A stretch of DNA of 64,000 bases. It comes from an uncultured Bacillota bacterium. Lineage in GTDB: Bacteria > Bacillota_I > Bacilli_A > RFN20 > CAG-826. The DNA lies in contig CASEPN010000001.1 of the NCBI GenBank assembly GCA_949289845.1, forward strand, positions 118,887 to 182,886, read 5' to 3'. The notes under the pieces are model-generated. The model did no database searches and was not told where the DNA came from. It worked only from the letters and a program-made list of their open reading frames with translations. A program made the position numbers and the translations under genes. Within the stretch, counting starts at the first letter, position 1. Each line of letters opens with the position of its first letter. This document shows, piece by piece, positions 1,090-51,875 of the stretch.

Positions 1090-1092
1090 GGG

Positions 1093-2145: not shown

Positions 2146-2146
2146 G

Positions 2147-3776: not shown

Positions 3777-3777
3777 T

Positions 3778-28400: not shown

Positions 28401-28789
28401 TCGAGGACGCCCAGGCCGACTACCTTGGCGACGTCCCCGCCGCGGTGGAGGAGAAGGTCGCTTCCTTCGTCACGGAGAGCTTCGGCGAGAACGCCAAGTT
28501 CGACATGCCTTCCTCTGTCTCCAACGAGGACATCCCCGAGGTCACCAACCGCTATAACGTCTACGTTCCTTCGGACGATCCGACGGGCGGGACCCCGACC
28601 TACCCGGGCGACGTCTGGCTCGCCCATGTCAAGACCGATTCCTATGACGCCTACGTCCTCATCGCCGTCGGCGACCTCATCACGGACGACGTCGACACGG
28701 ATGCGGCCCGCTACCTCGTATGCTCCGAGGAGGGGACCAGGGACACGGAAGCCATCGACGCAGTCGTGGAGGCGCTCCTCGCGCTCTAG
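25445..28789 (+). CDS. rnfG: Rnf complex subunit G, hugely expanded: N-terminal TM anchor plus about 8 tandem FMN-binding-domain-like repeats (1114 aa)
   Basis: N-terminal 'VLSVVAVLALIGGGAGALIG' anchor as in RnfG. Repeat 1, 'DASGNEIGKVYHAVGATGFGANVDLLIGVDADGLAHIEIVAYGPDNTGGN..IDGGTTTGATNTASVVRAM', aligns to canonical RnfG/FMN_bind 'GYGG.I.LLVGID.DGKI.GV.IL.H.ETPGLG....DAITGATITSRAV'. Seven further units of about 130 aa have the same pattern (e.g. 'NVIVGVTPEGEVTKLYL', 'ALVVGVKTDGTVTKLYL', 'LLIGVYPDGTISKVIAL', 'ALIAVNKDGTIKEVTLL') with variant flavinylation motifs (SAGAS, SAT, SSGT, SGGT). Confidence 0.8.
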   Translation: MKIKLDAKHVLSVVAVLALIGGGAGALIGTVNYFTSPVISENDDKKENEAYYKCFPDAASFSDETEVSSGTYIETYKSALDASGNEIGKVYHAVGATGFGANVDLLIGVDADGLAHIEIVAYGPDNTGGNNKTVEDWIDSINDGSETIDGGTTTGATNTASVVRAMVAEALDLYENGDVTPPPVTGGEKYYNLFEGGASAGDKVSVASGSLDHYREVKDASGNILGRAYYGGGLNVFGVSINVIVGVTPEGEVTKLYLDAYSGGEQMGTDTTIKNWIDEVNSGDREWTAGPSAGASYEVIKGVIDEAIAHYTSAAPAPTYEESVYLGLFEGASSIGAFRELGGNYLTGRVDVLDADGEVLGYAYEGEGKNSYNVHIALVVGVKTDGTVTKLYLGDYSGGNPAGTETSVNEWIDKVNDGTGSIEAGPSATYSYQVIKGIIDEAVGYATGAIVDPSENYLELFEGASSLGEEVELTGDYEYIASYREVKGSSGAVLGRGYITNTTNVGDRWGNLQLLIGVYPDGTISKVIALTDEQSRPDGTNEYIESVNGGGDYEDIFGYEASSGTVGIEITHDAIAEAIGDYTGVANLPAEITKAMASILPDAAGWGQPTVVNEGYIIGRMPVLDEDGVETGASYYLSGAASDGEYDLVILVKEDGSFTLSLVSGDWDSAYLAGVEAWIAKINDGSAHYRDDIKDSGVNQAAYAIAANIEAVLAYETETTESPYLALWDGSYSVSSSQAVEGGTYLHSYREVRDGAGKVLGRGYLTKVTSVPSSRGSYGDIQALIAVNKDGTIKEVTLLQNTQSIPGSTDEYAGFVNGGGNYEEVPEYSGGTIGVDILKDMIGEALTHYEQNPDQVVDPAEPVVPTNIPEAVKALIPEAHSWNAFVELSAVWQATGYWSALDESEAEIGRVYEFKAGSTGDDNLYYVALDEDAEIIQLEVVNTTLEGENLTALTTWVEQLNTGKAIPEIPSDSPIASELGWVESGIEDAQADYLGDVPAAVEEKVASFVTESFGENAKFDMPSSVSNEDIPEVTNRYNVYVPSDDPTGGTPTYPGDVWLAHVKTDSYDAYVLIAVGDLITDDVDTDAARYLVCSEEGTRDTEAIDAVVEALLAL

Positions 28790-28792
28790 GAT

Positions 28793-29518
28793 ATGGCGGA
28801 CAAGGCCATCGACATGCGGGGAGAGAGGAAGGAGGCCTTCGTCTCCGGAATCTGGAAGGCCAACCCCCTCTTCGTCTCCCTCCTGGGCTTCTGCCCGGCC
28901 CTCGCCGTCACGACCTCCTTCGAGAGCGCCTTCGGGATGGCGATCCTCTTCACCTTGGTGCTCCTGGGGTCGAACGTCTGCGTCTCGCTCCTCCGGAAGC
29001 TCATCCCGGAAGAGATCACGACGCCCTGCTACATCGTCATCATCGCCACCTTCGTCACGGTGGTGAAGATGCTCTGCGAGGCCTTCCTCCCGGAGCTATA
29101 CACCTCGCTCGGCGTCTTCCTCTCCCTCCTCGTCGTGAACTGCATCGTGCTCGGGAGGAGCGAGGCCTACGCCTCGAAGAACACGGTGCTCAACAGCACC
29201 CTCGACGCCCTCGGGAACGGCATCGGCTTCGGCTGGGCCATCTGCCTCATCGCCCTGGTGAGGGAGGTCCTCGGGACGGGGCAGCTCACCTTCGGGAAGG
29301 TGTTCACCTTCATCCCGGAGTACTCGCTCCCGCTCCTGAAGGTCGACGGGGTCTACGACCTCTCCATCGAGTTCTTCCAGCGTTCGATCGGGGGCTTCCT
29401 CGTGCTGGGGATCGCCCTTGCTATCATCGCCGCGATCGACATCCATAAGAAGGACAAGGCGAGGGTGGACGCCCTCCTCGCCAAGAAGAGGGCCGCGGCC
29501 CAGGAAGGAGCGAACTAG
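28793..29518 (+). CDS. rnfE: Rnf complex subunit E
   Basis: NqrD/RnfE family: 'NPLFVSLLGFCPALAVTTS', 'LGNGIGFG'. Confidence 0.9.
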   Translation: MADKAIDMRGERKEAFVSGIWKANPLFVSLLGFCPALAVTTSFESAFGMAILFTLVLLGSNVCVSLLRKLIPEEITTPCYIVIIATFVTVVKMLCEAFLPELYTSLGVFLSLLVVNCIVLGRSEAYASKNTVLNSTLDALGNGIGFGWAICLIALVREVLGTGQLTFGKVFTFIPEYSLPLLKVDGVYDLSIEFFQRSIGGFLVLGIALAIIAAIDIHKKDKARVDALLAKKRAAAQEGAN

Positions 29519-29521
29519 CCC

Positions 29522-30106
29522 ATGGAATACATCGTCGCCTTCCTCCTCGCCGTATTGACGAGCTCCCTCATCGACAATGTCGTCCTCGCCCGCTTCTACG
29601 GGATCTGCAGCTTCCTCGGGACCGGGAACAAGGTCAAGCCGGCCTTTTCGATGGGGCTTGCGGTGACCTTCGTCATCGTGCTGGCGAGCCTCGTCTGCTG
29701 GCCCCTTTATAACTACGTCCTCGTCCCGGCGAAGATGGAGTTCCTCGACACCATCGTCTACATCCTCGTCATCGCCTCCCTCGTGCAGCTGGTCGGGATC
29801 TTCGTCAAGAAGACCTCGCCCGCCCTCTACAAGGGACTGGGGATCTACCTCCCCCTCATCACCACCAACTGCGCGGTCCTCGGGGTCGCCCAGGGGAACA
29901 CCGACCAGGGGCTCGACTTCCTGAGCTCGATGGGGAACGCGATCGGGACCTCGCTCGGCTACCTCCTCGTGATCGTCCTCTTCGCCCTCATCCGCGAGAG
30001 GCTGGAGAGCGCCGAGACCCCCCGCGCCCTCAAGGGCATCCCCATCGCGATGGTGACCGCCGCCCTCATGGCGCTCGCCTTCATGGGGCTCCAGGGCATC
30101 GCCTAG
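29522..30106 (+). CDS. rnfA: Rnf complex subunit A
   Basis: NqrE/RnfA family: 'NVVLARFYGICSFLG', 'ITTNCAVLGVA'. Confidence 0.9.
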   Translation: MEYIVAFLLAVLTSSLIDNVVLARFYGICSFLGTGNKVKPAFSMGLAVTFVIVLASLVCWPLYNYVLVPAKMEFLDTIVYILVIASLVQLVGIFVKKTSPALYKGLGIYLPLITTNCAVLGVAQGNTDQGLDFLSSMGNAIGTSLGYLLVIVLFALIRERLESAETPRALKGIPIAMVTAALMALAFMGLQGIA

Positions 30107-30322
30107 ATGGACGAGGCCACGGCCAGGGGCCTGGCGATCGCCCTCGTCGTCCTCCTCGCCCTCCTCTTCCTCGGGAGCTTCGTCTGGTACATGAGGACGA
30201 AGCCTCCCAAGGGATGCGAGAGGGTGCGGAAGGACGAGACGGACTGCATCGGCTGCAAGAACGCCGGCTGCCGGCTCTACCGGCCCAAGGAAAATCCCCC
30301 CGAAGAGGGGAAGAAGGAGTGA
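30107..30322 (+). CDS. mini RnfB-like protein: TM anchor plus partial Fe-S (RnfB N-domain-like) motif
   Basis: 'GCERVRKDETDCIGCKNAGC' has 4 Cys with the C-x2-C-x4-C spacing of the RnfB N-terminal Fe-S domain. 71 aa. Confidence 0.45.
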   Translation: MDEATARGLAIALVVLLALLFLGSFVWYMRTKPPKGCERVRKDETDCIGCKNAGCRLYRPKENPPEEGKKE

Positions 30323-30325
30323 GAC

Positions 30326-30673
30326 ATGGACATGAGCCTGCTGGACATGGCCTTCGACAACGGGATGGCGATCCTTTATAGCTTCCTGGTGCTTCTCGCC
30401 CTCGGGGCGATCTTCGCCTTCCTCCTCTGTCTCTTCAGCGTCGTCTTCAAGGTGAAGGAGGACAAGAGGGTAGGGGTGGTGAGGAAGCTCCTCCCCGGGA
30501 TCGACTGCGGGGCATGCGGGAACGCGGGCTGCCAGGAGATGGCGGAGAAGCTCGTCTCGGGCGAAGTCAAGGACCCCGCCCTCTGCCGCCCGGGGAAGAA
30601 GGAGAAGAACTTCGACCCCATCCTCGCCTATCTCAAGGAACACCCCGAGCCCATATACGAGGACGAGGAGTGA
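30326..30673 (+). CDS. rnfB: RnfB N-terminal Fe-S domain protein (truncated RnfB lacking ferredoxin domains)
   Basis: 'LLPGIDCGACGNAGCQEMAEKLVSGEVKDPALCRPGKKE' aligns closely to E. coli RnfB '[38 protein letters not shown]'. An N-terminal TM helix is present and no C-terminal 2x[4Fe-4S] ferredoxin domain is present. Confidence 0.65.
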   Translation: MDMSLLDMAFDNGMAILYSFLVLLALGAIFAFLLCLFSVVFKVKEDKRVGVVRKLLPGIDCGACGNAGCQEMAEKLVSGEVKDPALCRPGKKEKNFDPILAYLKEHPEPIYEDEE

Positions 30674-30763
30674 GCAAGAGGCCTTCCGGAAGGGAGGCCT
30701 TTTCCTTCGCCTTTTCCTCCCTATTCCCGCCCTCCGTTGAGAAACAGACGGGGAGAAACTAGA

Positions 30764-31873
30764 ATGCGCCCCATGAAGAAATGGCTTCCTTTCCTTTTCT
30801 TGCCCCTGCTCCTTGCTTCCTGCGGTTCTCCTGAGGGAGCCTCGGGATCCTTGTCCGGGGACGAGGCTTCGTCCGGGAACGGGGCGACGATCGTCCCGAG
30901 CGGGGACTTCGAGCTCGTCCGCTACCAGGACTTCCTTTCCTTCGGCGCCTATAGCGACCTCCGCTTCTACCAAAGGGAAGGGGAGGATCATGTCGCCCTT
31001 TTCGAAAGCCTCGTGGAGGTATTCGAGCTTCTTTCCCATTACATGGAGACGGACCTTCCCTATGCGGATGTCTCGGGGAAGACGACCGCGAAGACCTTGA
31101 GCGAGGAAGAGGGGGCCTTTCCTCTCGACGAGACGATGGCGGGACTCCTTTCCTTCGCGATCGACGCCCGTTCGATCACCGGAGGCTCGATCGACATCCT
31201 TTCCGGCGGGCTCAACGACCTCTGGAAGGATTCCTATTTGCTGAACAAGGAGGACCCCGTCCTCCCGAGCCAAGCGGACATCTCCCGCGAAATCGCGAGG
31301 ATATCCTCCTCCTCGCTTTCCCTCGCCAAGGATTGGGACGGCTCCTATGAGGTCGAGAAGACAGGAAACGCCCTCCTCGACTTCGGCTCGATGGGGAAGG
31401 GCTACGCGGTGGCGCGCCTCGGGGAGGCGCTCCGCGAGGAAGGGATCGGCTATTTCCTTCTGAACGCCGGGACGAGCTCGATCCTCATCGGGCAGAACCC
31501 CAACAGCGAGGACGGGACCTTCAAGATCGGCTTCTCCGACATCGAAGGAGTCACCTTCCAGGCGAAGGACGTGGCGATCGGCACCTCGAGCGTGACGAAC
31601 CAGCACCGCGTGGACGAGGCCACCGGAACCCTCTATAGCCACGTGATCGACCCCAAGACAGGGAGCGCGGTGCCTTCCCTGACCACCGCGATCGTGATCG
31701 GGGAGGACGCCGGGATGTGCGACGTCTTCTCGACATGGCTCCTCATGAAAGGGGAGGAGGCCGATGTCGGGCTCATCGAAAGCATGGGCTACTCGGTCCT
31801 TCTTTACGACTACCGGAGGGCGACTCCCTTCGTCCACCTGAGCGAGTCCTTCCCCCCGCTGGAAGGGAAGTAG
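30764..31873 (+). CDS. apbE: FAD:protein FMN transferase ApbE, lipoprotein (extracytosolic)
   Basis: Signal peptide with lipobox 'LLLASCGS'. ApbE signature 'DFGSMGKGYAVARLGEAL' and a 'DPKTG' region. Confidence 0.85.
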   Translation: MRPMKKWLPFLFLPLLLASCGSPEGASGSLSGDEASSGNGATIVPSGDFELVRYQDFLSFGAYSDLRFYQREGEDHVALFESLVEVFELLSHYMETDLPYADVSGKTTAKTLSEEEGAFPLDETMAGLLSFAIDARSITGGSIDILSGGLNDLWKDSYLLNKEDPVLPSQADISREIARISSSSLSLAKDWDGSYEVEKTGNALLDFGSMGKGYAVARLGEALREEGIGYFLLNAGTSSILIGQNPNSEDGTFKIGFSDIEGVTFQAKDVAIGTSSVTNQHRVDEATGTLYSHVIDPKTGSAVPSLTTAIVIGEDAGMCDVFSTWLLMKGEEADVGLIESMGYSVLLYDYRRATPFVHLSESFPPLEGK

Positions 31874-34945: not shown

Positions 34946-35851
34946 ATGAAGAAACCCATTCTCCTGACCGCCGCGATCGCGGCCGCCACCCTCCTCGCCT
35001 CCTGCGGCGACGGATCCACCTGCAGCTCCTGCCCCGCCGGGAGCGAGGGCGCCAACATCACCCCGATCACCTTCGCGCAGCAGTGCGAGGCCGAGGGCAT
35101 CGACTTCACCTACGAGGACCCGAACGCGGCCTACTACATCCCCGAGGCGCTCCCGAGCAACACCGACGACATCGACCTCGAGCTCGGCGGCTCCACCGAT
35201 GCCGCCGGCAATCCGGCTGACAACGAGAGCGAGACCTCCTCTTCTTACTACACCATCGACTACGCGATGAGCAGGCTCACCACCTACTGGACGACCTACA
35301 CTTGGGCCGAGGCCGCCGCGGACGACACCGCGACCGCCTCCACCATCGCCGAGGCCGCTGCGCTCGAGAATGCCAAGTACGTCACCGATCTCTTCCCGAA
35401 CGATGGCAAGGAGTACGTCATCGAGTCCCAGAGGGGCTGGCCCTATGCCGCCGTCTCCTACTCCACCGTCGACGAGGACGGCACCCCCCGCGTCTCCACC
35501 GCCATCCCTGGCGCCAGGAAGGGCGAGGACGGCATCTGGAGGATGACCGGCTACATCACCATGAAGGACATGGTCTACAACATGGTCCGCACCGGCGAGG
35601 CCATGGCGCTCCTCTATGAGTGGCACCCCGAGGCCAGCGCCTGCTACGGCGGCCGCCTTGCCCTCGAGGTCGACTTCGACGCCACCTACGCCAGCGTCCC
35701 GGCCACGGAAGAGGGCGGCTCCCCGACCCAGGTCAAGCTCACCAAGGGCATGACCAAGGAAGAGCTCCCCGCCAACGCCAGCTACGTCGTCTTCAGCCTC
35801 AAGGTGACCCACCTCTACTCGATGGGCTACGCCAACGACTGGACGAAGTAA
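34946..35851 (+). CDS. hypothetical lipoprotein
   Basis: 'MKKPILLTAAIAAATLLASCGDG' signal peptide with lipobox. Acidic and Thr/Tyr-rich. Confidence 0.5.
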   Translation: MKKPILLTAAIAAATLLASCGDGSTCSSCPAGSEGANITPITFAQQCEAEGIDFTYEDPNAAYYIPEALPSNTDDIDLELGGSTDAAGNPADNESETSSSYYTIDYAMSRLTTYWTTYTWAEAAADDTATASTIAEAAALENAKYVTDLFPNDGKEYVIESQRGWPYAAVSYSTVDEDGTPRVSTAIPGARKGEDGIWRMTGYITMKDMVYNMVRTGEAMALLYEWHPEASACYGGRLALEVDFDATYASVPATEEGGSPTQVKLTKGMTKEELPANASYVVFSLKVTHLYSMGYANDWTK

Positions 35852-35881
35852 GTCCGTCCTCGGAGAAAGAAAGATCGGGAA

Positions 35882-35909
35882 GGCCTCGCGGGAACGCGGG
35901 GCCTTTCTT
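35882..35909 (+). terminator. rho-independent terminator
   Basis: 'ggcctcgcg-ggaa-cgcggggcc' hairpin followed by 'tttctt'. Confidence 0.5.
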
Positions 35910-36021
35910 CATCCCTCATCCACGCTCCTAAGGACCGCAAGCCGGGGCCATGGGAATCTCTACCCGCGTGGTGGAATTATTCGATGGCCCCTGCATCTTT
36001 CGCGGAGCGTGCCCTTGCCCC

Positions 36022-36050
36022 TTGATGCCCCCATGGGGAAGTGCTATATT
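36022..36050 (+). promoter_or_regulatory. sigma70-like promoter for the tRNA cluster (TTGATG-N17-TATATT)
   Basis: Hexamers at 36022-27 and 36045-50. tRNA-Ala starts 22 nt downstream. Confidence 0.45.
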
Positions 36051-36071
36051 CCGCGATGCCGCGAGGCGGCA

Positions 36072-36147
36072 CGGGGCATTAGCTCAGCGGTAGAGCACCT
36101 GCTTTGCAAGCAGGGGGTCGGGGGTTCGAGACCCCTATGCTCCACCA
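36072..36147 (+). tRNA. tRNA-Ala (anticodon TGC)
   Basis: Cloverleaf with 7-bp acceptor stem including the G3:U70 Ala identity pair. Anticodon loop 'tttgcaa'. T-arm 'gggggttcgagacccc'. CCA encoded. Confidence 0.9.
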
Positions 36148-36164
36148 GGAAGATGCCCGCGGAT

Positions 36165-36241
36165 GGCTGAGTAGCCCAGCTGGTCAGAGCGATCGGTTCA
36201 TACCCGACAGGTCGGGGGTTCAAGTCCCTCCTCAGCCACCA
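36165..36241 (+). tRNA. tRNA-Met (anticodon CAT), elongator type (G1:C72)
   Basis: Acceptor 'ggctgag/ctcagcc'. D-arm 'tagcccagctggtcagagc' like E. coli tRNA-Met(m). Anticodon loop 'ttcatac'. CCA encoded. Confidence 0.8.
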
Positions 36242-36336
36242 TCGAGATAGGGAGCCCGGAAGGGCTCTTTTCCGTTCCAGGGAAAAGGAGGGAAAGGCTT
36301 GCAAGAAGCCTTCCCAAGCGCTTAACTTCCCCCGCC

Positions 36337-36412
36337 GGACCATTAGCGCAGCGGTTAGCGCGGGCCCCTTATAAGAGCTAGGTCGCAGGTTCAAATCCTG
36401 CATGGTCCACCA
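36337..36412 (+). tRNA. tRNA-Ile-like with anticodon TAT (UAU)
   Basis: Perfect acceptor 'ggaccat/atggtcc'. Anticodon loop 'cttataa' (34-36 = TAT). The body ('ttagcgcagcggttagcgc', 'aggtcgcaggttcaaatcctgc') closely resembles bacterial tRNA-Ile2, with CAT replaced by TAT. CCA encoded. Confidence 0.7.
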
Positions 36413-36419
36413 GGAGAGC

Positions 36420-36446
36420 GCGCCCGGCGTGAGCCGGGCTTTTCTT
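36420..36446 (+). terminator. rho-independent terminator after the tRNA cluster
   Basis: 'gcccggc-gtga-gccgggc' followed by 'ttttctt'. Nearly the same structure follows tRNA-fMet at 51884. Confidence 0.65.
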
Positions 36447-36490
36447 CTCGCTCCCATATGGATTCCACCCCCCCATGCTAGAATCAGGGC

Positions 36491-38026
36491 ATGAGAAAAG
36501 CATGGTCCCTCCTCCTTCCTCTTCTCGCCCTTTCCTCCTGCGTCCCCGAAGGGACGACGGGGGATTCTTCCTCGACGAAGGAGGAGCCTTCCTCTAGTTC
36601 CTCGGAAGAGATCGAGGGGGGTTTCTGGATCGAAGGCCCTTCCTTGCTCGACATCGGGGAACGGGGGCGCTACGAGCTCATGGGGGACGTCCCCGAGGGC
36701 GAGATCCATTGGGAAGTCGAGGGCGAGAGCCTCGTCGAGCCCTATGAGTACCCCAACCCCCTCTACTACGGCCTCACGGGGCTATATGAGGGAGAGGTCG
36801 TCCTCAAGGCGATGTTAGGGGACAAGGTCCTCTTCCCTTTCGAGATCGAGGTGAAGGACGTCGACTCGGGCTTCCTCGTGGACGCGGGGACCGGGAAGCT
36901 CGCGCTCGGAGGGAAGATGGAGCTTTCCTTCTCGCTTGATGGGGAGCCCCTTCCTGCGAAGGAACTCTCCTCCGTCTCGATCACGACGCTTTCCTCGCCT
37001 TCGGGGAAGGGGCTCGTCTCCTCCTATGAGGACGAAGGCCTCTTCCTACTCGGGGAGGAGCTCGGGAGCTTCCGCGCGGTCGCTTCCTACGAGGGCCTTC
37101 TCTCCAACCCCTTCGAGATCGAGGTGATTCCTTCCGTCGAGGGGAAGACGTACCTCCTGGAGGTGCTTCTTGAAGACGGGACGCCCGCGGAAGAGAACAC
37201 CATCCCGACCTCTTCCACGGTCACCTTCGTCCTCCGGGACGAGGAAGGGGAGGACTATCCCTTCCAGTGGGGCGTGGAGCTCCTCGAAGGGGACTCCTGG
37301 GTCCTCCAGGAGACAGAGGATCCCCATGTCTACGAGACCTACATCTGGTCCGAGGAGAGGCTCCTAATCGCTCCTGCCTTCCCCGGGGAAGCGCCCGCGC
37401 TCGCGGCGGAGGCCCTCGAACTATACGTGATGCACGAAGGGGACACCCCTCTTCTGGACTTCCATCTCGAGGATGAGGCTGGGAACGAGGTCGAGACGCT
37501 CTTCGTCAGCCCTGACGGGAGCACGAGGCTCCATATCGTCCCGGAGCGAGAGACGGACTACCTCGGCACCGCGAACGTCCACTGCGAGGACGAGAGGCTC
37601 AACCCCGGCCAGGAATGGGGCGAGGAGGGAGGGCGCTACCTCATCTTCGCCCCCGAGGAGGGAGGGAGCTACTCCCTTCTCGTCAGGTTCACGTTCGTGA
37701 AGAAGGAGTTCCCGGTCCACGTTATGCCGGAGGAGGCCGCCCTCGAGCTTGAGATCATGGGGACGGGCACGATGGACGGGGAGAAGTACTACGTCGGACA
37801 TACGGGCTCGATCACGGGAGGGTTCCCTTGGGAGGGGCCCATCTACTGCGACCTCGTCGACTACGACGTCGAGTACGTCTTCCTTGAGGGCGAGGACCTC
37901 GTCCGCATCGGGGAGGGACGGGACATTCATTTCCTTTCCCCTGGCACGGTGAGCCTATATGCGCAGATCAGGAACACCGAGGTCAAGAGCAACACCTTCG
38001 CCTTCGAGATCGAGCCCGAGGAATAG
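36491..38026 (+). CDS. acidic secreted lipoprotein, hypothetical (Ig-like repeats likely)
   Basis: 'LLLPLLALSSCVPEG' lipobox. Glu-rich, beta-rich repeats. Confidence 0.5.
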   Translation: MRKAWSLLLPLLALSSCVPEGTTGDSSSTKEEPSSSSSEEIEGGFWIEGPSLLDIGERGRYELMGDVPEGEIHWEVEGESLVEPYEYPNPLYYGLTGLYEGEVVLKAMLGDKVLFPFEIEVKDVDSGFLVDAGTGKLALGGKMELSFSLDGEPLPAKELSSVSITTLSSPSGKGLVSSYEDEGLFLLGEELGSFRAVASYEGLLSNPFEIEVIPSVEGKTYLLEVLLEDGTPAEENTIPTSSTVTFVLRDEEGEDYPFQWGVELLEGDSWVLQETEDPHVYETYIWSEERLLIAPAFPGEAPALAAEALELYVMHEGDTPLLDFHLEDEAGNEVETLFVSPDGSTRLHIVPERETDYLGTANVHCEDERLNPGQEWGEEGGRYLIFAPEEGGSYSLLVRFTFVKKEFPVHVMPEEAALELEIMGTGTMDGEKYYVGHTGSITGGFPWEGPIYCDLVDYDVEYVFLEGEDLVRIGEGRDIHFLSPGTVSLYAQIRNTEVKSNTFAFEIEPEE

Positions 38027-38070
38027 CGTTCCTGGAAACGATGAAGGGAACATCCGCGTAATACCAACAT

Positions 38071-40326
38071 ATGAGAAGACCGTTCCTTGCCCTTTTCCTA
38101 TCTCTCTTCCTTCTTGCCTCCTGCGAGGAGCAGGGGGATCCCCTCGTGCCCCCCGAGCCCGCGGACGAGTTCTCCTTCGTCACCGAGGGCGGCGTCCTCG
38201 ACATCGGGGAGACAAGGGAGATCTTCTTTTTTCCCCGGAACGGGGCGAAGCCTACCTTCGAGATCGAGGGAAAGGGGGCGAGGATCCTCGACGTCGGGGA
38301 GGACTCCCTCCTCGTCCAGGGGATTGCGGAAGGGGGCTTCCTCCTGGAGGAGGCGAATAGCGGCGTCTCCCTTTCCCTATCGGTCGAGGACTTGTGGAGC
38401 GGATACTACCTCGAGGCGGACGCCATCTCCCTCATGGAAGGGGAGCGGGCCTCCCTCGCCCTCCATGGCCCCGGGGACGAGCTCCTTCCCTTGGAAGAGG
38501 GCATGCTCCGCCTTCTCCCCGGGAGCGCAGAGGCCTCCTTCCCCCTGGACGAGTTCGGGACCCCATCCCTCCAGGCGGACGGGACCGGGGAGATCCTCCT
38601 TTTCGCCGAGATGGAGGACGGGTCCGTCACGGACGTCCTTTCGATAAAAAGCACCATGTTCCTTGAGCCTCTCTATCTTTCCCTTGAAGGAGGGAACGGC
38701 GACTTCCGCCCCGGGGAGAAAAGGGAGCTCTCCCTCATGGACCGCTGGGGCGATCCTTATGAAGGGGACTGGGAGCCGACCATCAGGAACCTCGACATGT
38801 TTTCCACGCCTTTCGCCTTGGAAGGAAAGGAAATATCCGCGCTTTCCTCTGGGGAATGCGAGGTTTCCGCGAAAGTTGAGGAGGATGGATACGAAGTCCA
38901 GCCCCTCCGTCTCCTCTCCGCGGAGGAAGGGGAGAAGCGCCCCTACGAGCTCCGCCTCGTGAACGCCTATAACGAAAGCGACTGGGACGAGGACGGGCTC
39001 TGGATGAACCTCCAGGACGGGTATGGCTACGGCTTCTCTCTCTGGACGGACGTGGACGGCCCCAAGGGCTCGATCCAGGTCGAGTGTCTCGCCGGGGATC
39101 CCGAGGCCGTCCTTTTCGAAGTGGAAGAGGACTTCGGCTCCGGGCATATGGCCGATTGCTCCGTCCGTCCCATCAAGGAAGGCTCGGCGACCTACCGCGT
39201 GCGGATCGGGAGCCTATATAGCGAGGAGTACACCTTCCATGCGCTTCCTGGATGGAACTCCCGTCCTTCCCTTTCCCTGGAGGACGATGAGATCCCGGTG
39301 GGAGGGAAGACGAGGCTCCTCCCTTCCGTGGAAGGATCGGAAGGCGAGTACCTCTTCGACTATGTGGTCGTGGACGGGGAAGGGACCGCGAAGCTTCTCG
39401 AGGGCGGGGTCCTCGCCGGGGAGCGGGTCGGCTCGATGACCATCCAGGTGCGCCTCAGGGGAGAGCGCGGGCTTTGGGGCGAGTCGGTCGTCCTCGACGT
39501 AACGGAGGAAGGGAGCGGCGACCCCTACGTCGGGATGAGCCCGGAGGAGTTCTACCGGGACTACGAGCAGGCGGAGACGCTCCTGGACAGCTACTACCGC
39601 ACGAGGCACGGCTTCCTCTCGGGCTCGCTCGAGGTCCCGGGCCAGTACGCGGAGCTTTCCGAGGACCGCCCCATGGAGGACGGGCTATACGTCAAGAACA
39701 CATCCCTTTCCTTCTCCGAGGGCGGGTCCGCCTATACGGTGAGGGATAGCCAGGGGAACGAGTCGTTCACCATCTTCGAGGGCGGGGGCTACATCACCCT
39801 CGAGGAGGTCGCCGCCTATCTCTTCGCCTTCGGGGACGTCCCTGCCAACTATTGGGAGGACCGCTACGACTACCCTTCCCCTTCCTCAAGCGAGTGGGGC
39901 GAGTACCTCAGGCTCAACAACTCCTACTTCTCCGGGGACCAGGAGAGCTACCCTTACGAGCCCGCCCTTCCGGATATCTCCGGGATCGAAGGCGGGAGGA
40001 GCGACTACTATGAGGTCGACGTCGGGACGACGGGGACCTATACGGGTCCCTCCTTTCCCGTGAGGCCCTATAACGACGGCTACTCGATCACCCGCGGAGG
40101 GGCGAGGCTCGTCTACATGCGCTATACGGACGGGGAGGAAAGCCAGGCTCCCGCCCGGAAGGTGTTCTACACCTGGAACCACTACAACGACTTCCGCGAG
40201 TACCTGAACTACGAAGGGGGCTGGGGCGAGGCCTTCGGGAACGTGACCGCGGGGGGCGAGGTCGACGTCGTCGCCCCGGGAGGGCCGTCCCCTTACGTTC
40301 CAGTGGCGGAGAAGGGTCTTTTCTAA
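38071..40326 (+). CDS. secreted lipoprotein with C-terminal barnase/RNase-Sa-family ribonuclease domain
   Basis: Lipobox 'LLASCEEQ'. The C-terminal segment 'YYEVDVG..RGGARLVYMRYTDG..VFYTWNHYNDF' aligns to barnase 'TWREADINY..GFRNSDRILYSSD..IYKTTDHYQTF' with catalytic Glu, Arg, Arg and His conserved. The preceding 'ITLEEVAAYLFAFGDVPANYWEDR' matches barnase 'VADYLQTYHKLPDNYITKSE'. Confidence 0.6.
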   Translation: MRRPFLALFLSLFLLASCEEQGDPLVPPEPADEFSFVTEGGVLDIGETREIFFFPRNGAKPTFEIEGKGARILDVGEDSLLVQGIAEGGFLLEEANSGVSLSLSVEDLWSGYYLEADAISLMEGERASLALHGPGDELLPLEEGMLRLLPGSAEASFPLDEFGTPSLQADGTGEILLFAEMEDGSVTDVLSIKSTMFLEPLYLSLEGGNGDFRPGEKRELSLMDRWGDPYEGDWEPTIRNLDMFSTPFALEGKEISALSSGECEVSAKVEEDGYEVQPLRLLSAEEGEKRPYELRLVNAYNESDWDEDGLWMNLQDGYGYGFSLWTDVDGPKGSIQVECLAGDPEAVLFEVEEDFGSGHMADCSVRPIKEGSATYRVRIGSLYSEEYTFHALPGWNSRPSLSLEDDEIPVGGKTRLLPSVEGSEGEYLFDYVVVDGEGTAKLLEGGVLAGERVGSMTIQVRLRGERGLWGESVVLDVTEEGSGDPYVGMSPEEFYRDYEQAETLLDSYYRTRHGFLSGSLEVPGQYAELSEDRPMEDGLYVKNTSLSFSEGGSAYTVRDSQGNESFTIFEGGGYITLEEVAAYLFAFGDVPANYWEDRYDYPSPSSSEWGEYLRLNNSYFSGDQESYPYEPALPDISGIEGGRSDYYEVDVGTTGTYTGPSFPVRPYNDGYSITRGGARLVYMRYTDGEESQAPARKVFYTWNHYNDFREYLNYEGGWGEAFGNVTAGGEVDVVAPGGPSPYVPVAEKGLF

Positions 40327-40384
40327 ACAAGATTAATCCTCGATTTCTTGGCCCGTTCCAGCGGAATAGCCTTATCATTCGCCT

Positions 40385-43120
40385 ATGGAGATGGACATTT
40401 CGGAACGCGAAGGGCTGAGGGCCGACGGCCTTTCCCTTCGCTACAAGGACACCGGCAGGGTTGGTGTCGACTCTCTTTCCCTGGAACTTCCGGAGAACGG
40501 GCTCGTCCTGCTGACAGGCCCGTCCGGATGCGGGAAGTCCACCTTTCTATCCTTGGTCGGTTCCTTCGACAGCCCTGATAGGGGGTCCGTTTCCTTCAAG
40601 GGCTGGGAGATCACCTCTCTTAAAGGGAAGGGGCTCAGGGAGTTTCGGCGAGAGGTTCTCGGTGTCTGCTTCCAGGAGGCGAATCTTCTTCCAGGATTGA
40701 CGGTCAGGGAGAACCTTGCGCCCTACTGGAGGAGAAAGGACTCCGAGCGCATCATCCAGGAGCTCGGGCTCGCCAACCTTCTCGATACCCCCGCGCGATC
40801 CCTCTCCGGGGGAGAGGCGGAGCGCGTCGCGGTAGCAAGGGCGATCCTCAAAGGATCGTCACTTATCCTCGTGGATGAGCCGACGGCATCGCTCGACGGG
40901 GAGAACGGAGCCCAGGTAGCCAAGGTCTTGAAGGAGGCTTCCCGGAGCGCCCTTGTGATCGTGGCCTCCCATGACATAAGCCTTTTCGAGCCTTTCGCCG
41001 ATGTCCTCGTTCGCCTCAGGGACGGGAAACTCGTTTCCGCGGAAAGGCTGCAGGAACCGTTGCCTTATGAGGACGCGGAGTCGGCGGAACCCCCTTTTGA
41101 TCTCCGGAGGGAAGCCCGGACATTGCTCAAGGACCTTAAGAGGAGCCTCCCCTCCCACCCGGCGCGCCTTGTGTCGGGACTTCTTCTTTCGTTCCTCTCC
41201 CTCGCCGCCTGCTTCTCTTCCTTCTCTCTCCTCATGAGGGACGACGGATCGATCTCAAAGGATCTCGCGGTCTCCGGAAGTGAAACTTCTGTCCTAGGGA
41301 TGTCAAACCCTAATGCTCGTCTTTATCGGTCTGACCTTCCGGAAAGTTCTGTCCCTTTTTGCTCGGTTCCATCTAGTCCTCCTTGCATTCTCACTTCGTA
41401 TTTCATCGAGACATCAAGTTCCAGTTATAGCTTTGAGAGCTTGTTAGGTCCCTTTTTGACTGAATCAGTCGCCCCATACTCGCGTTCGGCTGAAGACGCC
41501 TTCCCCCTCCTTGCGGGAACATCCCCTTCCTCCGCATCAGAAGCGCTTATCTCCGACACGATGTTCCGTCAATACCAGGCATTTGGATTCGAAAATGATG
41601 GAATACGTCTTCCAGCCGGGTCATTCGATATCGATGGTTTCCTTGCCGCGGGACCCGAACTGATGCTCAGCTATCCGGTGAGGACGAGCGTCCGGGTCGT
41701 CGGCGTGTTCAAAGATGGATATGGTGATTTCTTCGACGCCTTCCGCGAGCAATGCGGGGATAGTCCGGTTGAGGTGAATTCCTCGCAGTACTGGCTTATG
41801 GAAGCGGCTGGTCGCGGAGCGCCTGGAGCCATTTTTCTTTCCGAGGACGCGTTCGGCCAGACAGTCGATATGCCGGACTCCTTCTGGGTCGGCAATAAGG
41901 AAAGGACAATGCTTTCGCTCTGGCGCGAAGAAACAGAGTTTCAATTCACCTATGTTGAAACACAACTTCCCCTTAACGTCGTCTATCCTTTCCAAAAGGA
42001 TGGGGGAGCCATTTTGCCCTACCCCTTGTTCCTGGAAATCTATTCGGAAACCCCTATCGGACACAAAGGGATCAAAGACTTCCGGTCGTTTGAAATTGGA
42101 GATTCCTGCAAGGACTATTCTTTATATTTTCCTGGAAATGCCTCTATCGGCGATTTGCTGAATGCAGATGTCCTTAAGTTTGCCGCTCTTTATTACCTTG
42201 ATAAGCATGGAGTGCCGGAAGGCGTGGATGTATCTGAGTATCTGGAGAAAGCGGAAAGAGATTTTCCGGATGTTGATTTTCATAAGGAGGGAGCCTTGGA
42301 AGCCTACTGGGCTCTATTAGTGTCCTCCTATAGCAGTTCCAATTATAAATGGGCTTTTTTGGAAGCGTTGATTTCGGATTTGTTCGAGGGCGAAGAACCA
42401 CTTGTTGCCAAGATTGCATCGGCTTCACGGAGTGTTGCTGCGTCAAGATTCGAGCCAATCGAGGTAACAATCTGCGGATATTCCCCTTTACTCGGGTATT
42501 CGCCCGCCGGCATATTCGTTTATCCCGGGGAGCAGGCATCCGAGACCATATGGGACAGCCTCTCGCAGGAAGATGTCGCCTACTTCCTTCCTCCTGAGGG
42601 GGAGAAGGACCGTCTGATGGACGAAGGGCTCAATGAGCGCTCTCTCATGGCGTTCAGCCCTTCCCTCGCCTCTTGGCAGGCGTTCACCATCTCCTCGTAC
42701 GGAACGCCCGGCCTAGGCATTTTAATAGGCATCATCGCCGTCTTCGCCGCTTTCGTTATGTTCCTATCGCTCGTTAGCGTCCTCTCCGGGTCGAATGCTC
42801 TTCTTGCGGGCGAGGACGCCCTCAGGAAGTCCCTAGGGGAGGGTATCGGAAGGGCTTACCTCCGCGGCTTCCTGGAAGCCTCGTTGGTCACGCTGATCGG
42901 CGGGATTCCGGCGCTCGTCGCGGCCGCCATCGTCTTCGCCGGGATGAACGGAGTTGCCGCTTCCGTCTTCCTGAATTCACTTTCCTACTATTCGCTGGAC
43001 GCGCTTGCTGTCATTGGCGCATTCGCCCTCTTCCTTCTCCTGAGCGCGCTCCTCGCGCTCCTCCTCCTTCCCTCCGGGGAGAAGAAGAGAATAGCCGCTC
43101 TTAAAAACAGATTTCGTTGA
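40385..43120 (+). CDS. ABC transporter, fused ATPase + FtsX/MacB-type permease with large extracytoplasmic domain
   Basis: Walker A 'GPSGCGKST', signature 'LSGGEAERVAVARAI', Walker B 'LILVDEPTASLD'. The C-terminal permease has FtsX-like TM helices. The internal region 41230-42560 has markedly lower GC. Confidence 0.8.
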   Translation: MEMDISEREGLRADGLSLRYKDTGRVGVDSLSLELPENGLVLLTGPSGCGKSTFLSLVGSFDSPDRGSVSFKGWEITSLKGKGLREFRREVLGVCFQEANLLPGLTVRENLAPYWRRKDSERIIQELGLANLLDTPARSLSGGEAERVAVARAILKGSSLILVDEPTASLDGENGAQVAKVLKEASRSALVIVASHDISLFEPFADVLVRLRDGKLVSAERLQEPLPYEDAESAEPPFDLRREARTLLKDLKRSLPSHPARLVSGLLLSFLSLAACFSSFSLLMRDDGSISKDLAVSGSETSVLGMSNPNARLYRSDLPESSVPFCSVPSSPPCILTSYFIETSSSSYSFESLLGPFLTESVAPYSRSAEDAFPLLAGTSPSSASEALISDTMFRQYQAFGFENDGIRLPAGSFDIDGFLAAGPELMLSYPVRTSVRVVGVFKDGYGDFFDAFREQCGDSPVEVNSSQYWLMEAAGRGAPGAIFLSEDAFGQTVDMPDSFWVGNKERTMLSLWREETEFQFTYVETQLPLNVVYPFQKDGGAILPYPLFLEIYSETPIGHKGIKDFRSFEIGDSCKDYSLYFPGNASIGDLLNADVLKFAALYYLDKHGVPEGVDVSEYLEKAERDFPDVDFHKEGALEAYWALLVSSYSSSNYKWAFLEALISDLFEGEEPLVAKIASASRSVAASRFEPIEVTICGYSPLLGYSPAGIFVYPGEQASETIWDSLSQEDVAYFLPPEGEKDRLMDEGLNERSLMAFSPSLASWQAFTISSYGTPGLGILIGIIAVFAAFVMFLSLVSVLSGSNALLAGEDALRKSLGEGIGRAYLRGFLEASLVTLIGGIPALVAAAIVFAGMNGVAASVFLNSLSYYSLDALAVIGAFALFLLLSALLALLLLPSGEKKRIAALKNRFR

Positions 43121-43309
43121 ATTTGCTGTCGTTCTGCATAGTTATCGCAGGCTGATTTACCATTCTCTCCATAGTTTCCGGCATAGGAGTGATCTTCCTG
43201 TCTCATTGAGGGAGGCACGAAACGGACGGGGTTTGTTGGCTTTTCGCCCAATATCCTGAATTTCCTGCATTTTCCCGGGAAATAACCTTTCCCATCGACT
43301 ACAATTCCC

Positions 43310-45034
43310 TTGATGACCGCGTGGGTGTTCGTCCTCCTTGTCTTCGGGCTCGTGATCGCGCTCTCGGTCTTTGCCTCGCGCTTCCTGACGAAACTCCGTC
43401 TTCCTTCCATCGTCCTCTTCATCGCCCTCGGCCTTCTCTTCGGGCTTCTGTTCAGGGCGACGCCCATAGGGAACTTCACCGACTATGGCTTCGGGAACGT
43501 CGTCTCTTCGATCGCCCTCCTCTTCATCATCTTCTACGGGGGGTACGGCACCCGCTTCAAGGAGGCGAGGCCCGTCCTTGGGAAGGCGATCGTCCTTTCT
43601 TCCGCGGGAACGCTTCTCACCGCCCTCATCCTCGGAAGCCTCGTCTACGTCGCCTACCTCGTCCTGCCCTTCGGGGAGGTGGCCTTCGCCCCATGCCTCC
43701 TATTGGCCGCGGTGATGGCGTCCACGGACGCCGCCTCGGTGTTCGACATCCTCCGCACCAGGAAGCTCGGCCTTCGGGAGAACACGGCCTCCCTCCTTGA
43801 GATGGAATCCGGCTCGAACGATCCTTTCGCGTATGTGCTGACGACGCTTCTCGTCGCGATCGTCGCCGGCGCGGGCGGGAATCCCTGGTCCTTGACCGCG
43901 GAGGTCGCCATTTCCTTCTTCTGCCAGATCGGCATCGGCGTCGCGGGGGGCGCCCTCTTCGGGCTCCTTGGCATCTTCCTCCTCCGGAAGTTCGGCTTCC
44001 GCCTGGGGCAAGGGGCGCCGATCCTCGTCCTTGCCCTCGCGATCCTTTCCTATGTCATCCCTTCCCTTCCTCCCGCCCCCTACACGGGGAACGGGTATCT
44101 TTCCGCCTATATCGCCGGGATCCTCATCGGGAACGCGAAGCTTCCGGAGAAGAAGTCCTCGGTCCTCTTCATGGGGTCGATCTCCGACATCTGCCAGATG
44201 GTCGTGTTCTTCCTCATGGGCCTTTTGGCCACGCCGGAGCATCTCTTCCTCCCGGAGACGATCGTCGTCGCCCTCATCGTCTTCCTTCTCATCACCTTCG
44301 TCGCGAGGCCCCTCGCGGTCACCTTGCTCCTCCTCCCTTTCAAGGCGAGCAAGGGGCAGATCCTCCTGACCTCCGCGGCGGGGCTACGGGGCGTCGCCTC
44401 GATGGTCTTCGCCATCTTCGCCCTCACCTCCGTCGGGGAAGGCGCCCTGCCCTTCGACATCTTCTCCATCGTCTTCCTCGTCATGGTGTTCTCTCTTGTC
44501 CTGGAAGGGTCCGCCCTTCCTGCCCTGGCGAAGTGGTTCGGGATGGTCGACCTGACGAGCGACGTCATGCGCACCTTCAACGACTACCTCGAGGAAGAGG
44601 AGGTGAGCTTCCTCCGCCTCTCGATCGGGGAGAGGCACCCCTGGAACGGGAAGCCCCTCCGGGAGTGCGAGACGCCCGACGGCTTCCTCTTCCTTCTTGT
44701 CACGAGGGACGGCAAAAGCTTCGTCCCGGACGGCTCCACGGTGTTCCAGGGAGGGGACGTCCTCATCGCCTCAGGTCCTTCCTTCGAGGGAAGCGAGGCC
44801 GCGGACGTCGACGAGGAGTCGATCGGCCTCGGGTCCACCCTCGCGGGGAAGAAGGTCCGGGAGCTCGGCTATCCCAAGGGCACGATCCTCGCCCTCATCA
44901 AAAGGGGTGGGGGCGTCATCGTCCCAAACGGCCATACGGTCCTCCAGCAGGGGGACGTCCTCGTGAAGATGAGGGTGAAGGAAGGGGAGGCCGTTCCCGA
45001 GGAAGAAGCCCAAAAAGAGGAAGGCGGGGAATAG
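43310..45034 (+). CDS. CPA1-family cation/H+ antiporter (NhaP2/CvrA-like) with two C-terminal RCK_C (TrkA-C) domains
   Basis: About 12 TM helices, then 'GKPLRECETPDGFLFLLVTRDGKSFVPDGSTVFQGGDVLIASG' and 'GKKVRELGYPKGTILALIKRGGGVIVPNGHTVLQQGDVLVKM'. Confidence 0.7.
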   Translation: MMTAWVFVLLVFGLVIALSVFASRFLTKLRLPSIVLFIALGLLFGLLFRATPIGNFTDYGFGNVVSSIALLFIIFYGGYGTRFKEARPVLGKAIVLSSAGTLLTALILGSLVYVAYLVLPFGEVAFAPCLLLAAVMASTDAASVFDILRTRKLGLRENTASLLEMESGSNDPFAYVLTTLLVAIVAGAGGNPWSLTAEVAISFFCQIGIGVAGGALFGLLGIFLLRKFGFRLGQGAPILVLALAILSYVIPSLPPAPYTGNGYLSAYIAGILIGNAKLPEKKSSVLFMGSISDICQMVVFFLMGLLATPEHLFLPETIVVALIVFLLITFVARPLAVTLLLLPFKASKGQILLTSAAGLRGVASMVFAIFALTSVGEGALPFDIFSIVFLVMVFSLVLEGSALPALAKWFGMVDLTSDVMRTFNDYLEEEEVSFLRLSIGERHPWNGKPLRECETPDGFLFLLVTRDGKSFVPDGSTVFQGGDVLIASGPSFEGSEAADVDEESIGLGSTLAGKKVRELGYPKGTILALIKRGGGVIVPNGHTVLQQGDVLVKMRVKEGEAVPEEEAQKEEGGE

Positions 45035-45044
45035 CCTTCCTTCC

Positions 45045-45653
45045 CTAGAACGGGAGGACGCCCAGGTGGTCGAGGAGGATCTTGAGCCCGACCAGCATCA
45101 GGACGATTCCTCCCAGAATCTCGGCGATCTCGACGTGCCCCTTCAGGAAGCGCGAGATCCCTTTCCCGAGGAACACCCCGAGGAGGCATAGGAGGAAGGT
45201 CACGAGGGCGATCAAGAGGAGCCCGAGCCAGACGTTGAAGGGGGCGATGGAACTTTCCAGGGTGATCCCCACGGCGAAGGCGTCGATCGCCGTCGCGAGC
45301 GCCTGGAGGAGGACGAGGCGGAAGGTGAAGGGACGTTCCTCCTCTTCCTCCTTCCCCTTCCTCTTCTCCCAGGCTTCCTTCCCCCCGTCGAAGATCATCT
45401 TCCCCCCGATGAGGAGAAGAAGCGCGAAGGCGATCCAGTGGTCGAACTCCTCGATGTAGGACATGAAGGTCGTCCCGAGAAGATGGCCAAGAAGCGGCAG
45501 GAGTCCCTGGAAGAGACCGAAGGCGAGGGCGATGAAGGCCGCCTTAGGCTTCGTGAGCCCCTTCAGGGAAAGGCCGTCCACGATGGAGACCGCGAAGGCG
45601 TCCATCGCGAGGCTGAGGGCGATGACGAACGTCGTGACGATAGCAGAGCCCAT
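45045..45653 (-). CDS. mntP: manganese efflux pump MntP (DUF204)
   Basis: 'IALSLAMDAFAVS' and the repeated half 'ATAIDAFAVGITL' are the MntP signature. 202 aa. Confidence 0.75.
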   Translation of the reverse strand: MGSAIVTTFVIALSLAMDAFAVSIVDGLSLKGLTKPKAAFIALAFGLFQGLLPLLGHLLGTTFMSYIEEFDHWIAFALLLLIGGKMIFDGGKEAWEKRKGKEEEEERPFTFRLVLLQALATAIDAFAVGITLESSIAPFNVWLGLLLIALVTFLLCLLGVFLGKGISRFLKGHVEIAEILGGIVLMLVGLKILLDHLGVLPF

Positions 45654-45732: not shown

Positions 45733-45823
45733 GGAGGCATACCCAAGCGGCTGAAGGGGCCGGTCTTGAAAACCGGAAGCGGGTCTTTGCCCGGCGGGAG
45801 TTCGAATCTCCCTGCCTCCGCCA
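45733..45823 (+). tRNA. tRNA-Ser (anticodon TGA)
   Basis: Acceptor 'ggaggca/tgcctcc'. Anticodon loop 'cttgaaa'. Long variable arm 'aagcgggtctttgcccggc'. CCA encoded. TATAAT at 45718-45723. Confidence 0.9.
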
Positions 45824-51798: not shown

Positions 51799-51875
51799 CG
51801 CGGGGTAGAGCAGCCTGGTAGCTCGTCAGGCCCATAACCTGAAGGCCGGTGGTTCAAATCCATCCCCCGCAACCA
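51799..51875 (+). tRNA. initiator tRNA-fMet (anticodon CAT)
   Basis: Near-identical to E. coli tRNA-fMet: C1xA72 mismatch ('cgcgggg..ccccgca a cca'), anticodon stem/loop 'tcaggcccataacctga'. Confidence 0.9.

Follow-up and report, generated by a model that had tools for sequence, protein, structure and literature searches.

How does a bacterium read the isoleucine codon AUA without also reading the methionine codon AUG, and can it do so without lysidine? Telling the two codons apart is among the classic problems of the genetic code. In nearly all bacteria the solution is lysidine, the product of the essential enzyme TilS, and the few natural exceptions show how an essential modification system gets replaced. 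The question is raised here by a transfer RNA (tRNA) gene at 36337-36412 on the forward strand of a 64-kb stretch of DNA (hereafter the window; 64,000 nucleotides of contig CASEPN010000001.1) from an uncultured Bacillota bacterium. A preliminary description, made from the letters alone, had read this gene as a tRNA with a UAU anticodon on a tRNA-Ile2-like body. We consider it probable that it is a functional minor tRNA-Ile(UAU) that reads AUA directly through a U34:A pair, and that it descends in place from the tRNA-Ile2(CAU) of Firmicutes.

The tRNA-Ile(UAU) gene and its conservation

ARAGORN called five tRNAs in the window, three of them clustered as Ala(tgc)-Met(cat)-Ile(tat), the arrangement that the preliminary description had outlined. 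The tRNA-Ile(tat) gene (36337-36412, forward strand) is 76 nucleotides (nt) long with its CCA encoded, and Rfam model RF00005 matches it over its full length with 64.7 bits (E=8.8e-12; gathering score 29), ranking second among the five. A tRNA-shaped pattern matched once in the window and in none of 100 shuffles. The 5' half reads GGACCAU/UA/GCGC/AGCGGUUA/GCGC/G/GGCCC/CUUAUAA, and the part after the anticodon loop reads GAGCU/AGGUC/GCAGG/UUCAAAU/CCUGC/AUGGUCC/A/CCA. A canonical 7-nt anticodon loop holds T34, A35 and T36, and the ARAGORN call and the Rfam alignment agree on the UAU anticodon that had been proposed. The isoleucine identity elements A35, U36, A37, A38, A73, C29-G41 and C4-G69 are all present; these are reportedly the determinants of the E. 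coli isoleucyl-tRNA synthetase (IleRS) described by Nureki and colleagues in 1994. Pair 12-23 is G-C, not U-A.

The anticodon stem is the one irregular part of the molecule. C30:A40 is the sole non-Watson-Crick pair in the Rfam alignment, and because of this mismatch, when the sequence is folded by itself, the minimum-energy structure from ViennaRNA re-pairs the anticodon region, swapping the canonical anticodon arm for an alternative pairing while retaining the acceptor, D and T arms. Such features could mean that a tRNA-Ile2(CAU) gene was recently inactivated by mutation to TAT and is now a pseudogene, or that TAT was introduced into its sequence by the assembly. An assembly error is contradicted by the presence of an identical gene, preceded by an identical 95-nt spacer, in two further assemblies of the same or a closely related species: CASFDV010000001.1, where the proteins beside the gene are 94-99% identical to those of the window, and scaffold_3 of ENA ERZ16268097, where DegV is 99% identical.

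The distribution of the gene was established with one scan of 185,579 species-representative genomes for the tRNA geometry GGACC...TTATA...GGTCCA. It returned 31 loci with a UAU tRNA and a GGACC/GGUCC acceptor stem, of which 17 lie in metagenome-assembled genomes (MAGs) labelled as an uncultured Firmicutes, Bacilli or Bacillales bacterium, some of these bin labels being evidently unreliable. In these 17 relatives the gene lies beside tRNA-Ser(UGA) and/or downstream of Ala-Met. The scarcity of matches for this acceptor-stem type fits the earlier statement that genomically encoded tRNA-Ile(UAU) is rare in bacteria, as do published surveys, which list it in 19 species of tRNADB-CE (PMC4013482) and in 17 complete bacterial genomes analysed with tRNAscan-SE 2.0, where it is named 'tRNA-Ile3(UAU)' (PMC8450103).

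Together with the window gene, the relatives give an alignment of 18 sequences, 12 of which are distinct, and the GC content of their loci is 38-62%. Across it 94.8% of the stem cells are paired, and two-sided changes occur at six pairs (12-23, 27-43, 28-42, 49-65, 50-64 and 51-63). Pairs covary with a score of 0.254; in shuffles the score is 0.086 (none of 500 reached the observed value), and with the pairing partners slid it is at most 0.042. Covariation at 27-43 and 28-42 backs the canonical anticodon stem despite the ViennaRNA fold. C32, U33, A37, A38 and C29-G41, which the search pattern left unconstrained, are invariant; the invariance of the anticodon and of the outer acceptor pairs carries no weight, because the pattern fixed them. 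Three sub-types (A, A' and B) can be told apart, with C30:A40 in seven distinct sequences, C30-G40 with U31:G39 in a sister group, and a fully paired CACCC/GGGUG stem in a third group.

Judging from this alignment, tRNA-Ile(UAU) is under selection as a functional gene across the relatives, and the same conservation appears to have effectively refuted a pseudogene. T34 occurs in all 18 sequences (17 of them species representatives, the anticodon being set by the search pattern) and in three related assemblies; changes in the stems are compensated and no base of the anticodon loop varies, the anticodon itself being fixed by the pattern; only one tRNA of the window has a higher Rfam score; and AUA codons are used and need a decoder. 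We give an inactivated or misassembled gene next to no credence.

The remaining 14 loci come mainly from DPANN archaea and bacteria of the candidate phyla radiation (L005, L007, L012-L016, L021, L027, L029 and L031: Uhrbacteria, Shapirobacteria and Parcubacteria, one genome labelled Iainarchaeum and the rest labelled uncultured archaeon), with two Proteobacteria/Myxococcota MAGs (Gammaproteobacteria, L006; Kofleriaceae, L019) and one unclassified bacterium (L030). Direct AUA decoding may be commoner in reduced-genome lineages than the published lists suggest. Four 'cleanbin' MAGs (L001, L003, L017 and L022) are labelled Alistipes shahii, Roseburia hominis, Lachnospiraceae and Oscillospiraceae despite a Firmicutes-type tRNA cluster, and these labels are probably mis-binned or mis-assigned.

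Body and genomic slot of the UAU tRNA

From which tRNA could such a gene have arisen? We used as reference a Listeria monocytogenes chromosome that is mis-filed in PLSDB and carries a 21-tRNA cluster. In a joint alignment the window gene is 76% identical to Listeria Ile2(CAU), 68% to Ile(GAU) and 53-61% to the Met and fMet tRNAs. The top full-length matches in 5,426 E. coli genomes, at 78.9%, are genes annotated as tRNA-Ile by the Prokaryotic Genome Annotation Pipeline (PGAP), with a CAT anticodon. These values uphold the Ile2-like body of the preliminary description. Two CAU tRNAs from JGI metagenomes (L037/L042), found by a scan that used the acceptor/T-arm framework with CAT, share the acceptor and T arms and are identical at 61 of 73 positions (84%), the differences lying mostly in the anticodon and D stems.

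Canonical tRNA-Ile2(CAU), as in L. monocytogenes, shares with the window gene the acceptor GGACC.U/A.GGUCC, the T stem GCAGG/CCUGC, A73 and the CU...AUAA loop context. The 8-nt D loop of tRNA-Ile(UAU) is also that of the E. coli and metagenomic CAU tRNAs, whereas the Listeria gene has 9 nt. What sets the canonical tRNA apart is position 34, which is T in the window and in all 17 relatives (fixed there by the pattern) and not the C34 that makes a TilS substrate; on such a tRNA lysidine cannot form and would not be needed.

The slot agrees with the body. The Listeria cluster runs Val-Thr-Lys-Leu-Gly-Leu-Arg-Pro-Ala-Met(CAU)-X(CAU)-Ser(UGA)-Met(CAU)-Asp-..., and its X(CAU) is an Ile2-type tRNA (GGACCUU...AAGGUCC). 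Listeria thus has Ala-Met-Ile2(CAU)-Ser(UGA) where this lineage has Ala-Met-Ile(UAU)-Ser(UGA). Because the window cluster is collinear with the Listeria order, the UAU gene corresponds in position to tRNA-Ile2(CAU), and the third gene of the Ala-Met-X cluster noticed earlier takes the Ile2 position. In L026 all four genes lie inside ~480 nt; tRNA-Ser(UGA) follows Ile(UAU) within ~80 nt in 12 relatives (within 12 nt in 10) and at 2.5-4 kb in L024/L025. In the window this ancestral 3' partner, called by ARAGORN at 45733-45823 (forward strand), lies ~9.3 kb away, beyond inserted genes at 36491-45653.

The same reference identifies the other two CAU tRNAs of the window. The gene at 36165-36241 (forward strand; ARAGORN; Rfam 60.3 bits), kept in eight clade copies, had been described as an elongator tRNA-Met, and its identity to the elongator-type CAU tRNA of the corresponding Listeria slot is 80%, compared with 66% to Ile2 and 60% to the initiator. 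It has a 9-nt D loop, a UUCAUAC anticodon loop and G2-C71/C3-G70, and the first CAU tRNA of Listeria, of the elongator type, has its GGUUCAUACCCG arm. In E. coli it matches nothing but rare tRNA-Ile(CAT) genes of phages (84% over 56 nt); a tRNA-Ile2 identity for this gene was considered and dropped in view of the Listeria comparison. A C12:A23 mismatch in its D stem is kept in 8/8 clade copies examined. The initiator tRNA (CAU), starting at 51799, was recognised by ARAGORN, Rfam and alignment and has the C1:A72 mismatch; it is 85% identical to the third CAU tRNA of Listeria and 88-90% to E. coli genes annotated tRNA-Met.

Ancestry was also sought closer to the lineage. A strict scan of JGI metagenomes for the Ile2 body with CAT returned eight copies, none in an Ala-Met-X-Ser context; these copies serve for comparison of the body, not for ancestry. 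With DegV as an outgroup anchor we obtained 5-6 orthologues only, L032 being without synteny and the other matches distant paralogues, and the ancestral state in the nearest outgroup was not recovered by this route.

A gene of this kind might instead have been gained horizontally, on a phage or mobile element, as a booster of rare-codon translation. The best E. coli matches are indeed prophage-borne tRNA-Ile(CAT) genes beside tRNA-Arg genes, and a likely acquired block lies just downstream in the window, with a GC content at third codon positions (GC3) of 0.63 at 40385-43120. However, the UAU gene is part of a housekeeping cluster of tRNAs that is conserved in 17 species and collinear with Listeria, there are no phage genes among its neighbours (Rnf, ApbE, DegV, transporters and several open reading frames (ORFs) without a family match), and its sequence tracks the host phylogeny through groups A, A' and B. 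Import is disfavoured, and we regard it as exceedingly improbable.

Two further observations concern the sequences compared here. Group B (L003, L008, L011, L017, L023 and L026) combines an Ile2-type acceptor stem with a CACCC/GGGUG anticodon stem like that of tRNA-Ile(GAU), and the L026 gene has 76% identity with the Ile-GAU of Listeria and 73% with its Ile2; arm conversion or convergence is possible. The PLSDB 'plasmid' records NZ_CP030101.1 (L046; 2.9 Mb) and NZ_LR134401.1 (0.81 Mb) are chromosomal sequence of Listeria monocytogenes.

AUA decoding and the fate of TilS

Is there anything for a UAU tRNA to decode? In 56 ORFs of the window, chosen by GC3, AUA accounts for 41 of 18,925 codons (2.17 per 1000; 3.9% of Ile codons) and occurs in 24 of the ORFs, so that the codon whose frequency the preliminary description had singled out is rare, as expected at 62% GC, but in use. 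A decoder of AUA is indispensable despite this rarity. In small ORF samples of the relatives AUA ranges from 0 to ~29 per 1000 and is mostly at 3-12, the 38%-GC loci included.

The meaning of the codon could in principle have changed, with the UAU tRNA charged with another amino acid (for example methionine, as for AUA in many mitochondria). Reassignments do occur nearby, as uncultured Bacilli of GTDB order RFN20 show AGG to Met and CGG to Trp (PMC8629427). When AUA positions were compared with orthologues in relatives by tblastn, however, 17 of 23 aligned with Ile, three with Val and one each with Met, Arg and Thr; AUA therefore still means isoleucine. The tRNA itself, which has A73, A37, A38 and C29-G41 on an Ile2-type body, reaches no more than 53-61% identity with Met tRNAs. 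We find a reassigned AUA hardly conceivable here.

If AUA is still isoleucine, the decoder has to be sought among the tRNAs at hand. The window holds no second one, its other two CAU tRNAs being the elongator Met and the initiator, and neither ARAGORN nor the comparison of tRNA clusters found a CAU tRNA-Ile2 in the window or in the loci of the 17 relatives. Neither the window nor ~136 kb of clade loci, which amount to a few percent of a genome, showed a TilS-like ORF with an SGGxDS PP-loop. Motif searches of the window and loci for FtsH, AAA and the PP-loop, aimed at a tilS-hpt-ftsH neighbourhood, found nothing, and coaX (14573-15319) does not lie beside ftsH in the window. A PF01171 protein (L033) was rejected as TilS: it has the CxxC motifs typical of TtcA, comes from an unrelated locus and served as a weak probe only. 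Literature searches turned up nothing relevant on tilS in RF39/RFN20 or on tRNA-Ile(UAU) of this lineage.

These results bear on the possibility that the UAU tRNA is a redundant decoder. TilS and another tRNA-Ile2(CAU) would then be encoded elsewhere, AUA would be read by both LAU (lysidine at position 34) and UAU, and nothing would have been lost. C4-G69 and C5-G68, which are TilS determinants in E. coli, are still present in tRNA-Ile(UAU), though perhaps kept for IleRS, and the window is a 64-kb part of the genome. Such a mixed state is documented, Firmicutes included, in L. casei and L. plantarum as well as in Cyanothece and Ferrimonas (PMC3575796). Against redundancy, the UAU gene is not an extra copy but occupies the tRNA-Ile2 slot, a CAU tRNA-Ile2 is absent from the window and the 17 relatives' loci, the eight same-body CAT copies in JGI metagenomes include none in Ala-Met-X-Ser context, and at least one clade member has a 1.06-Mb genome (OX437086.1), a setting where modification enzymes tend to go. 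We judge redundant decoding unlikely, though a possibility to be taken seriously.

Several points weigh against a functional, direct-reading tRNA-Ile(UAU) that replaced tRNA-Ile2. The anticodon stem has its C30:A40 mismatch and the isolated sequence prefers another fold in that region; the acceptor-stem invariance of the 18 sequences is partly set by the search pattern; the sequence covered is 64 kb of one genome and 8-kb pieces of relatives; and the Firmicutes L. casei and L. plantarum carry a TAT gene together with tilS (PMC3575796). Occupation of the Ile2 slot by the TAT gene nevertheless suggests replacement rather than addition.

The direct-reading tRNA-Ile(UAU) that we favour could have come about through one change, of the wobble C to T at position 34 of a tRNA-Ile2 gene that otherwise would have kept its place between Met and Ser(UGA), its acceptor stem (with C4-G69 and C5-G68), an 8-nt D loop and a very similar T arm. 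The product would be co-transcribed with tRNA-Ala and tRNA-Met and charged by IleRS, presumably via A35, U36, A37, A38, A73 and C29-G41. By analogy with Mycoplasma mobile and with a B. subtilis tilS-deletion suppressor, U34 is likely to be unmodified, and misreading of AUG would be limited by weak U:G pairing and by competition from tRNA-Met. Since the conversion seems to have struck the CAU gene itself, we infer that lysidine is no longer required for AUA; TilS would then be dispensable, and tilS has probably been lost in this lineage, a possibility that the preliminary description had raised, as in M. mobile, Bifidobacterium and Neorickettsia. The ileS gene does not lie in the 64-kb window. 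According to Taniguchi et al. (2013, PMC3575796), the IleRS of B. subtilis and Lactobacillus has an Arg at the position of E. coli W905 and M. mobile R865, with which a UAU anticodon can be recognised, and by that analogy it is plausible that the IleRS of this lineage was pre-adapted to UAU.

Such decoding of AUA is rare, but it has been described before. A UAU tRNA replaces tRNA-Ile2(CAU) and TilS in M. mobile and other mycoplasmas, in Bifidobacterium and in Neorickettsia, which made nine species in three clades in 2013 (PMC3575796). The window lineage resembles M. mobile in having a genome-encoded tRNA-Ile(UAU) as AUA decoder, in its relation to Firmicutes/Mollicutes and in AUA meaning Ile (PMC3575796, PMC1635315). 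In contrast to the Ile2-type body and slot found here, the M. mobile tRNA was judged closer to tRNA-Ile(GAU) (Silva et al. 2006, PMC1635315), and M. mobile is low-GC with thousands of AUA codons in its coding sequences, whereas the window genome has 62% GC and 2.2 AUA per 1000. In M. mobile, tilS loss, IleRS Arg865, unmodified U34 and ribosomal discrimination have been demonstrated, with AUA/AUG reading by unmodified U34 measured (PMC3575796). Bifidobacterium and Neorickettsia likewise have a UAU tRNA in place of tRNA-Ile2(CAU), and Bifidobacterium is also high-GC with rare AUA, but both belong to other phyla and have a eukaryote-type IleRS (PMC3575796). L. casei and L. plantarum, themselves Firmicutes, have a TAT tRNA in the genome and an IleRS whose Arg is predicted to accept UAU; unlike the window lineage, with its TAT gene in the Ile2 slot, they keep tilS and tRNA-Ile2(CAU), and their decoding is redundant (PMC3575796). 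That a Bacilli cell can live on an unmodified UAU tRNA without TilS was proven by the tRNA-Ile1(UAU) suppressor of a B. subtilis tilS deletion (Fabret 2011; Kohrer 2014, PMC3919564), in which the unmodified-U34 tRNA-Ile is good on AUA and poor on AUG (PMC3919564). The suppressor arose by GAT to TAT in tRNA-Ile1, while the window gene corresponds to CAT to TAT in tRNA-Ile2. The window gene differs from the known cases in its lineage, in its traceability to a one-base change in the orthologous Ile2 gene and in its weakened anticodon stem.

That stem suggests a more speculative extension. The weak base of the anticodon stem, with C30:A40 in seven distinct sequences from 38-62% GC and U31:G39 in the sister group, raises the idea that a whole clade of at least 17 uncultured gut Firmicutes species gave up lysidine through a C34-to-U conversion of tRNA-Ile2 in place and that the tRNA body, not the ribosome, helps to bar U34 from AUG, in distinction to the ribosome-based solution described for M. 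mobile. We hold this to be a long shot.

Operon, neighbouring genes and host lineage

Bracketed by a promoter-like site and a terminator, the Ala-Met-Ile genes are predicted to be transcribed as an operon. The putative start is a sigma-70-like promoter at 36022-36050 (forward strand; TTGATG, a 17-nt spacer and TG-TATATT with an extended -10) upstream of tRNA-Ala; it is the sole promoter-like site in 35850-36550, where 0.1 is expected from shuffles, and both hexamers are kept in three assemblies while the flanks vary. The first gene, tRNA-Ala(UGC) at 36073-36147 (forward strand; ARAGORN; Rfam 68.3 bits), has the same position in the relatives and in Listeria. The 95-nt spacer between Met and Ile (36242-36336, forward strand) is 100% identical in three assemblies, in contrast to the variable Ala-Met spacer and nearby intergenic DNA, and in its sequence we read a hairpin, GAGCCC-GGAA-GGGCTC followed by TTTT, and a weak TTGCAA-17-TTAACT motif from which transcription might also start. 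The promoter/terminator scanner reported neither on the forward strand, so their function is uncertain. Transcription would stop at an intrinsic terminator found by the terminator scan at 36422-36449 (forward strand), a 7-bp all-G:C stem GCCCGGC-GTGA-GCCGGGC followed by TTTTCTTCTC, which is kept in related assemblies with one loop change.

The block at 36491-45653 that separates Ile from Ser(UGA) encodes two proteins that match no family, the first of which has a lipoprotein-like signal, as well as a 911-aa ATP-binding cassette (ABC) ATPase-permease fusion, a K+/H+ antiporter and MntP. Orthologues of the antiporter and MntP fill the same gap in L024/L025; the rest of the block was found only in the high-GC L018 and L020. 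The ABC gene (40385-43120) has a GC3 of 0.63, compared with ~0.85 elsewhere, and 6 of the 41 AUA codons, which suggests that it was recently acquired. Upstream, the rnf operon (23005-31873) contains, between rnfC and rnfE/rnfA-like genes that are followed by ApbE, an unusually expanded gene (25445-28789, forward strand) for a 1114-aa RnfG-like protein; the RnfG model TIGR01947 matches its first ~120 residues only, and it has ~7-8 tandem repeats resembling the flavin mononucleotide (FMN)-binding domain. The window begins (1-5117) with rsmB-like, rlmN, PP2C phosphatase, Ser/Thr kinase and rpe genes, an order that resembles the rsmB-rlmN-prpC-prkC-(rsgA)-rpe region of B. subtilis and is consistent with Bacilli ancestry.

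Clues to the host come from LeuS (12058-14460). An exact look-up of this protein gave no record, and a homologue with 98% identity lies on an ENA contig of 365 kb; the closest named homologues (~71%) come from MAGs labelled Mollicutes, Bacilli or Bacillota bacterium. The remark in the preliminary description that such tRNAs are known from a few Mollicutes was apt, MAGs labelled Mollicutes or Bacilli bacterium being the source of the closest named LeuS. One clade member, OX437086.1, is a complete 1.06-Mb chromosome. On the strength of the LeuS homologues and this chromosome, the lineage is an uncultured, probably gut-associated and partly genome-reduced group of Firmicutes. Possible orders for it are RFN20, RF39 and ML615J-28, to which NCBI gives the labels Bacillales or Mollicutes (PMC8629427, PMC10868615). 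For so narrow a clade, close relatives span a striking GC gap of ~24 points, with 38% for the L024/L025 loci and 59-62% for those of the window, L018 and L020; across it the amino acid identity is 79% for LeuS and 66-69% for DegV, and the tRNA-Ile(UAU) genes are 1-3 nt apart.

For specialists in decoding and tRNA modification this locus is a useful example, and it would contribute a new principle only if tilS loss and a fidelity mechanism in the tRNA body were demonstrated. A one-base change in an orthologous gene fits the pathway proposed by Taniguchi et al. (2013), who also predicted the discovery of tilS-less Firmicutes (PMC3575796). If tilS is absent, this clade fulfils that prediction, and it would offer many natural genomes in which to follow the changes in IleRS, the ribosome and the tRNA body that accompany the loss of lysidine, with relevance for TilS as an antibacterial target and for engineering of the AUA codon.

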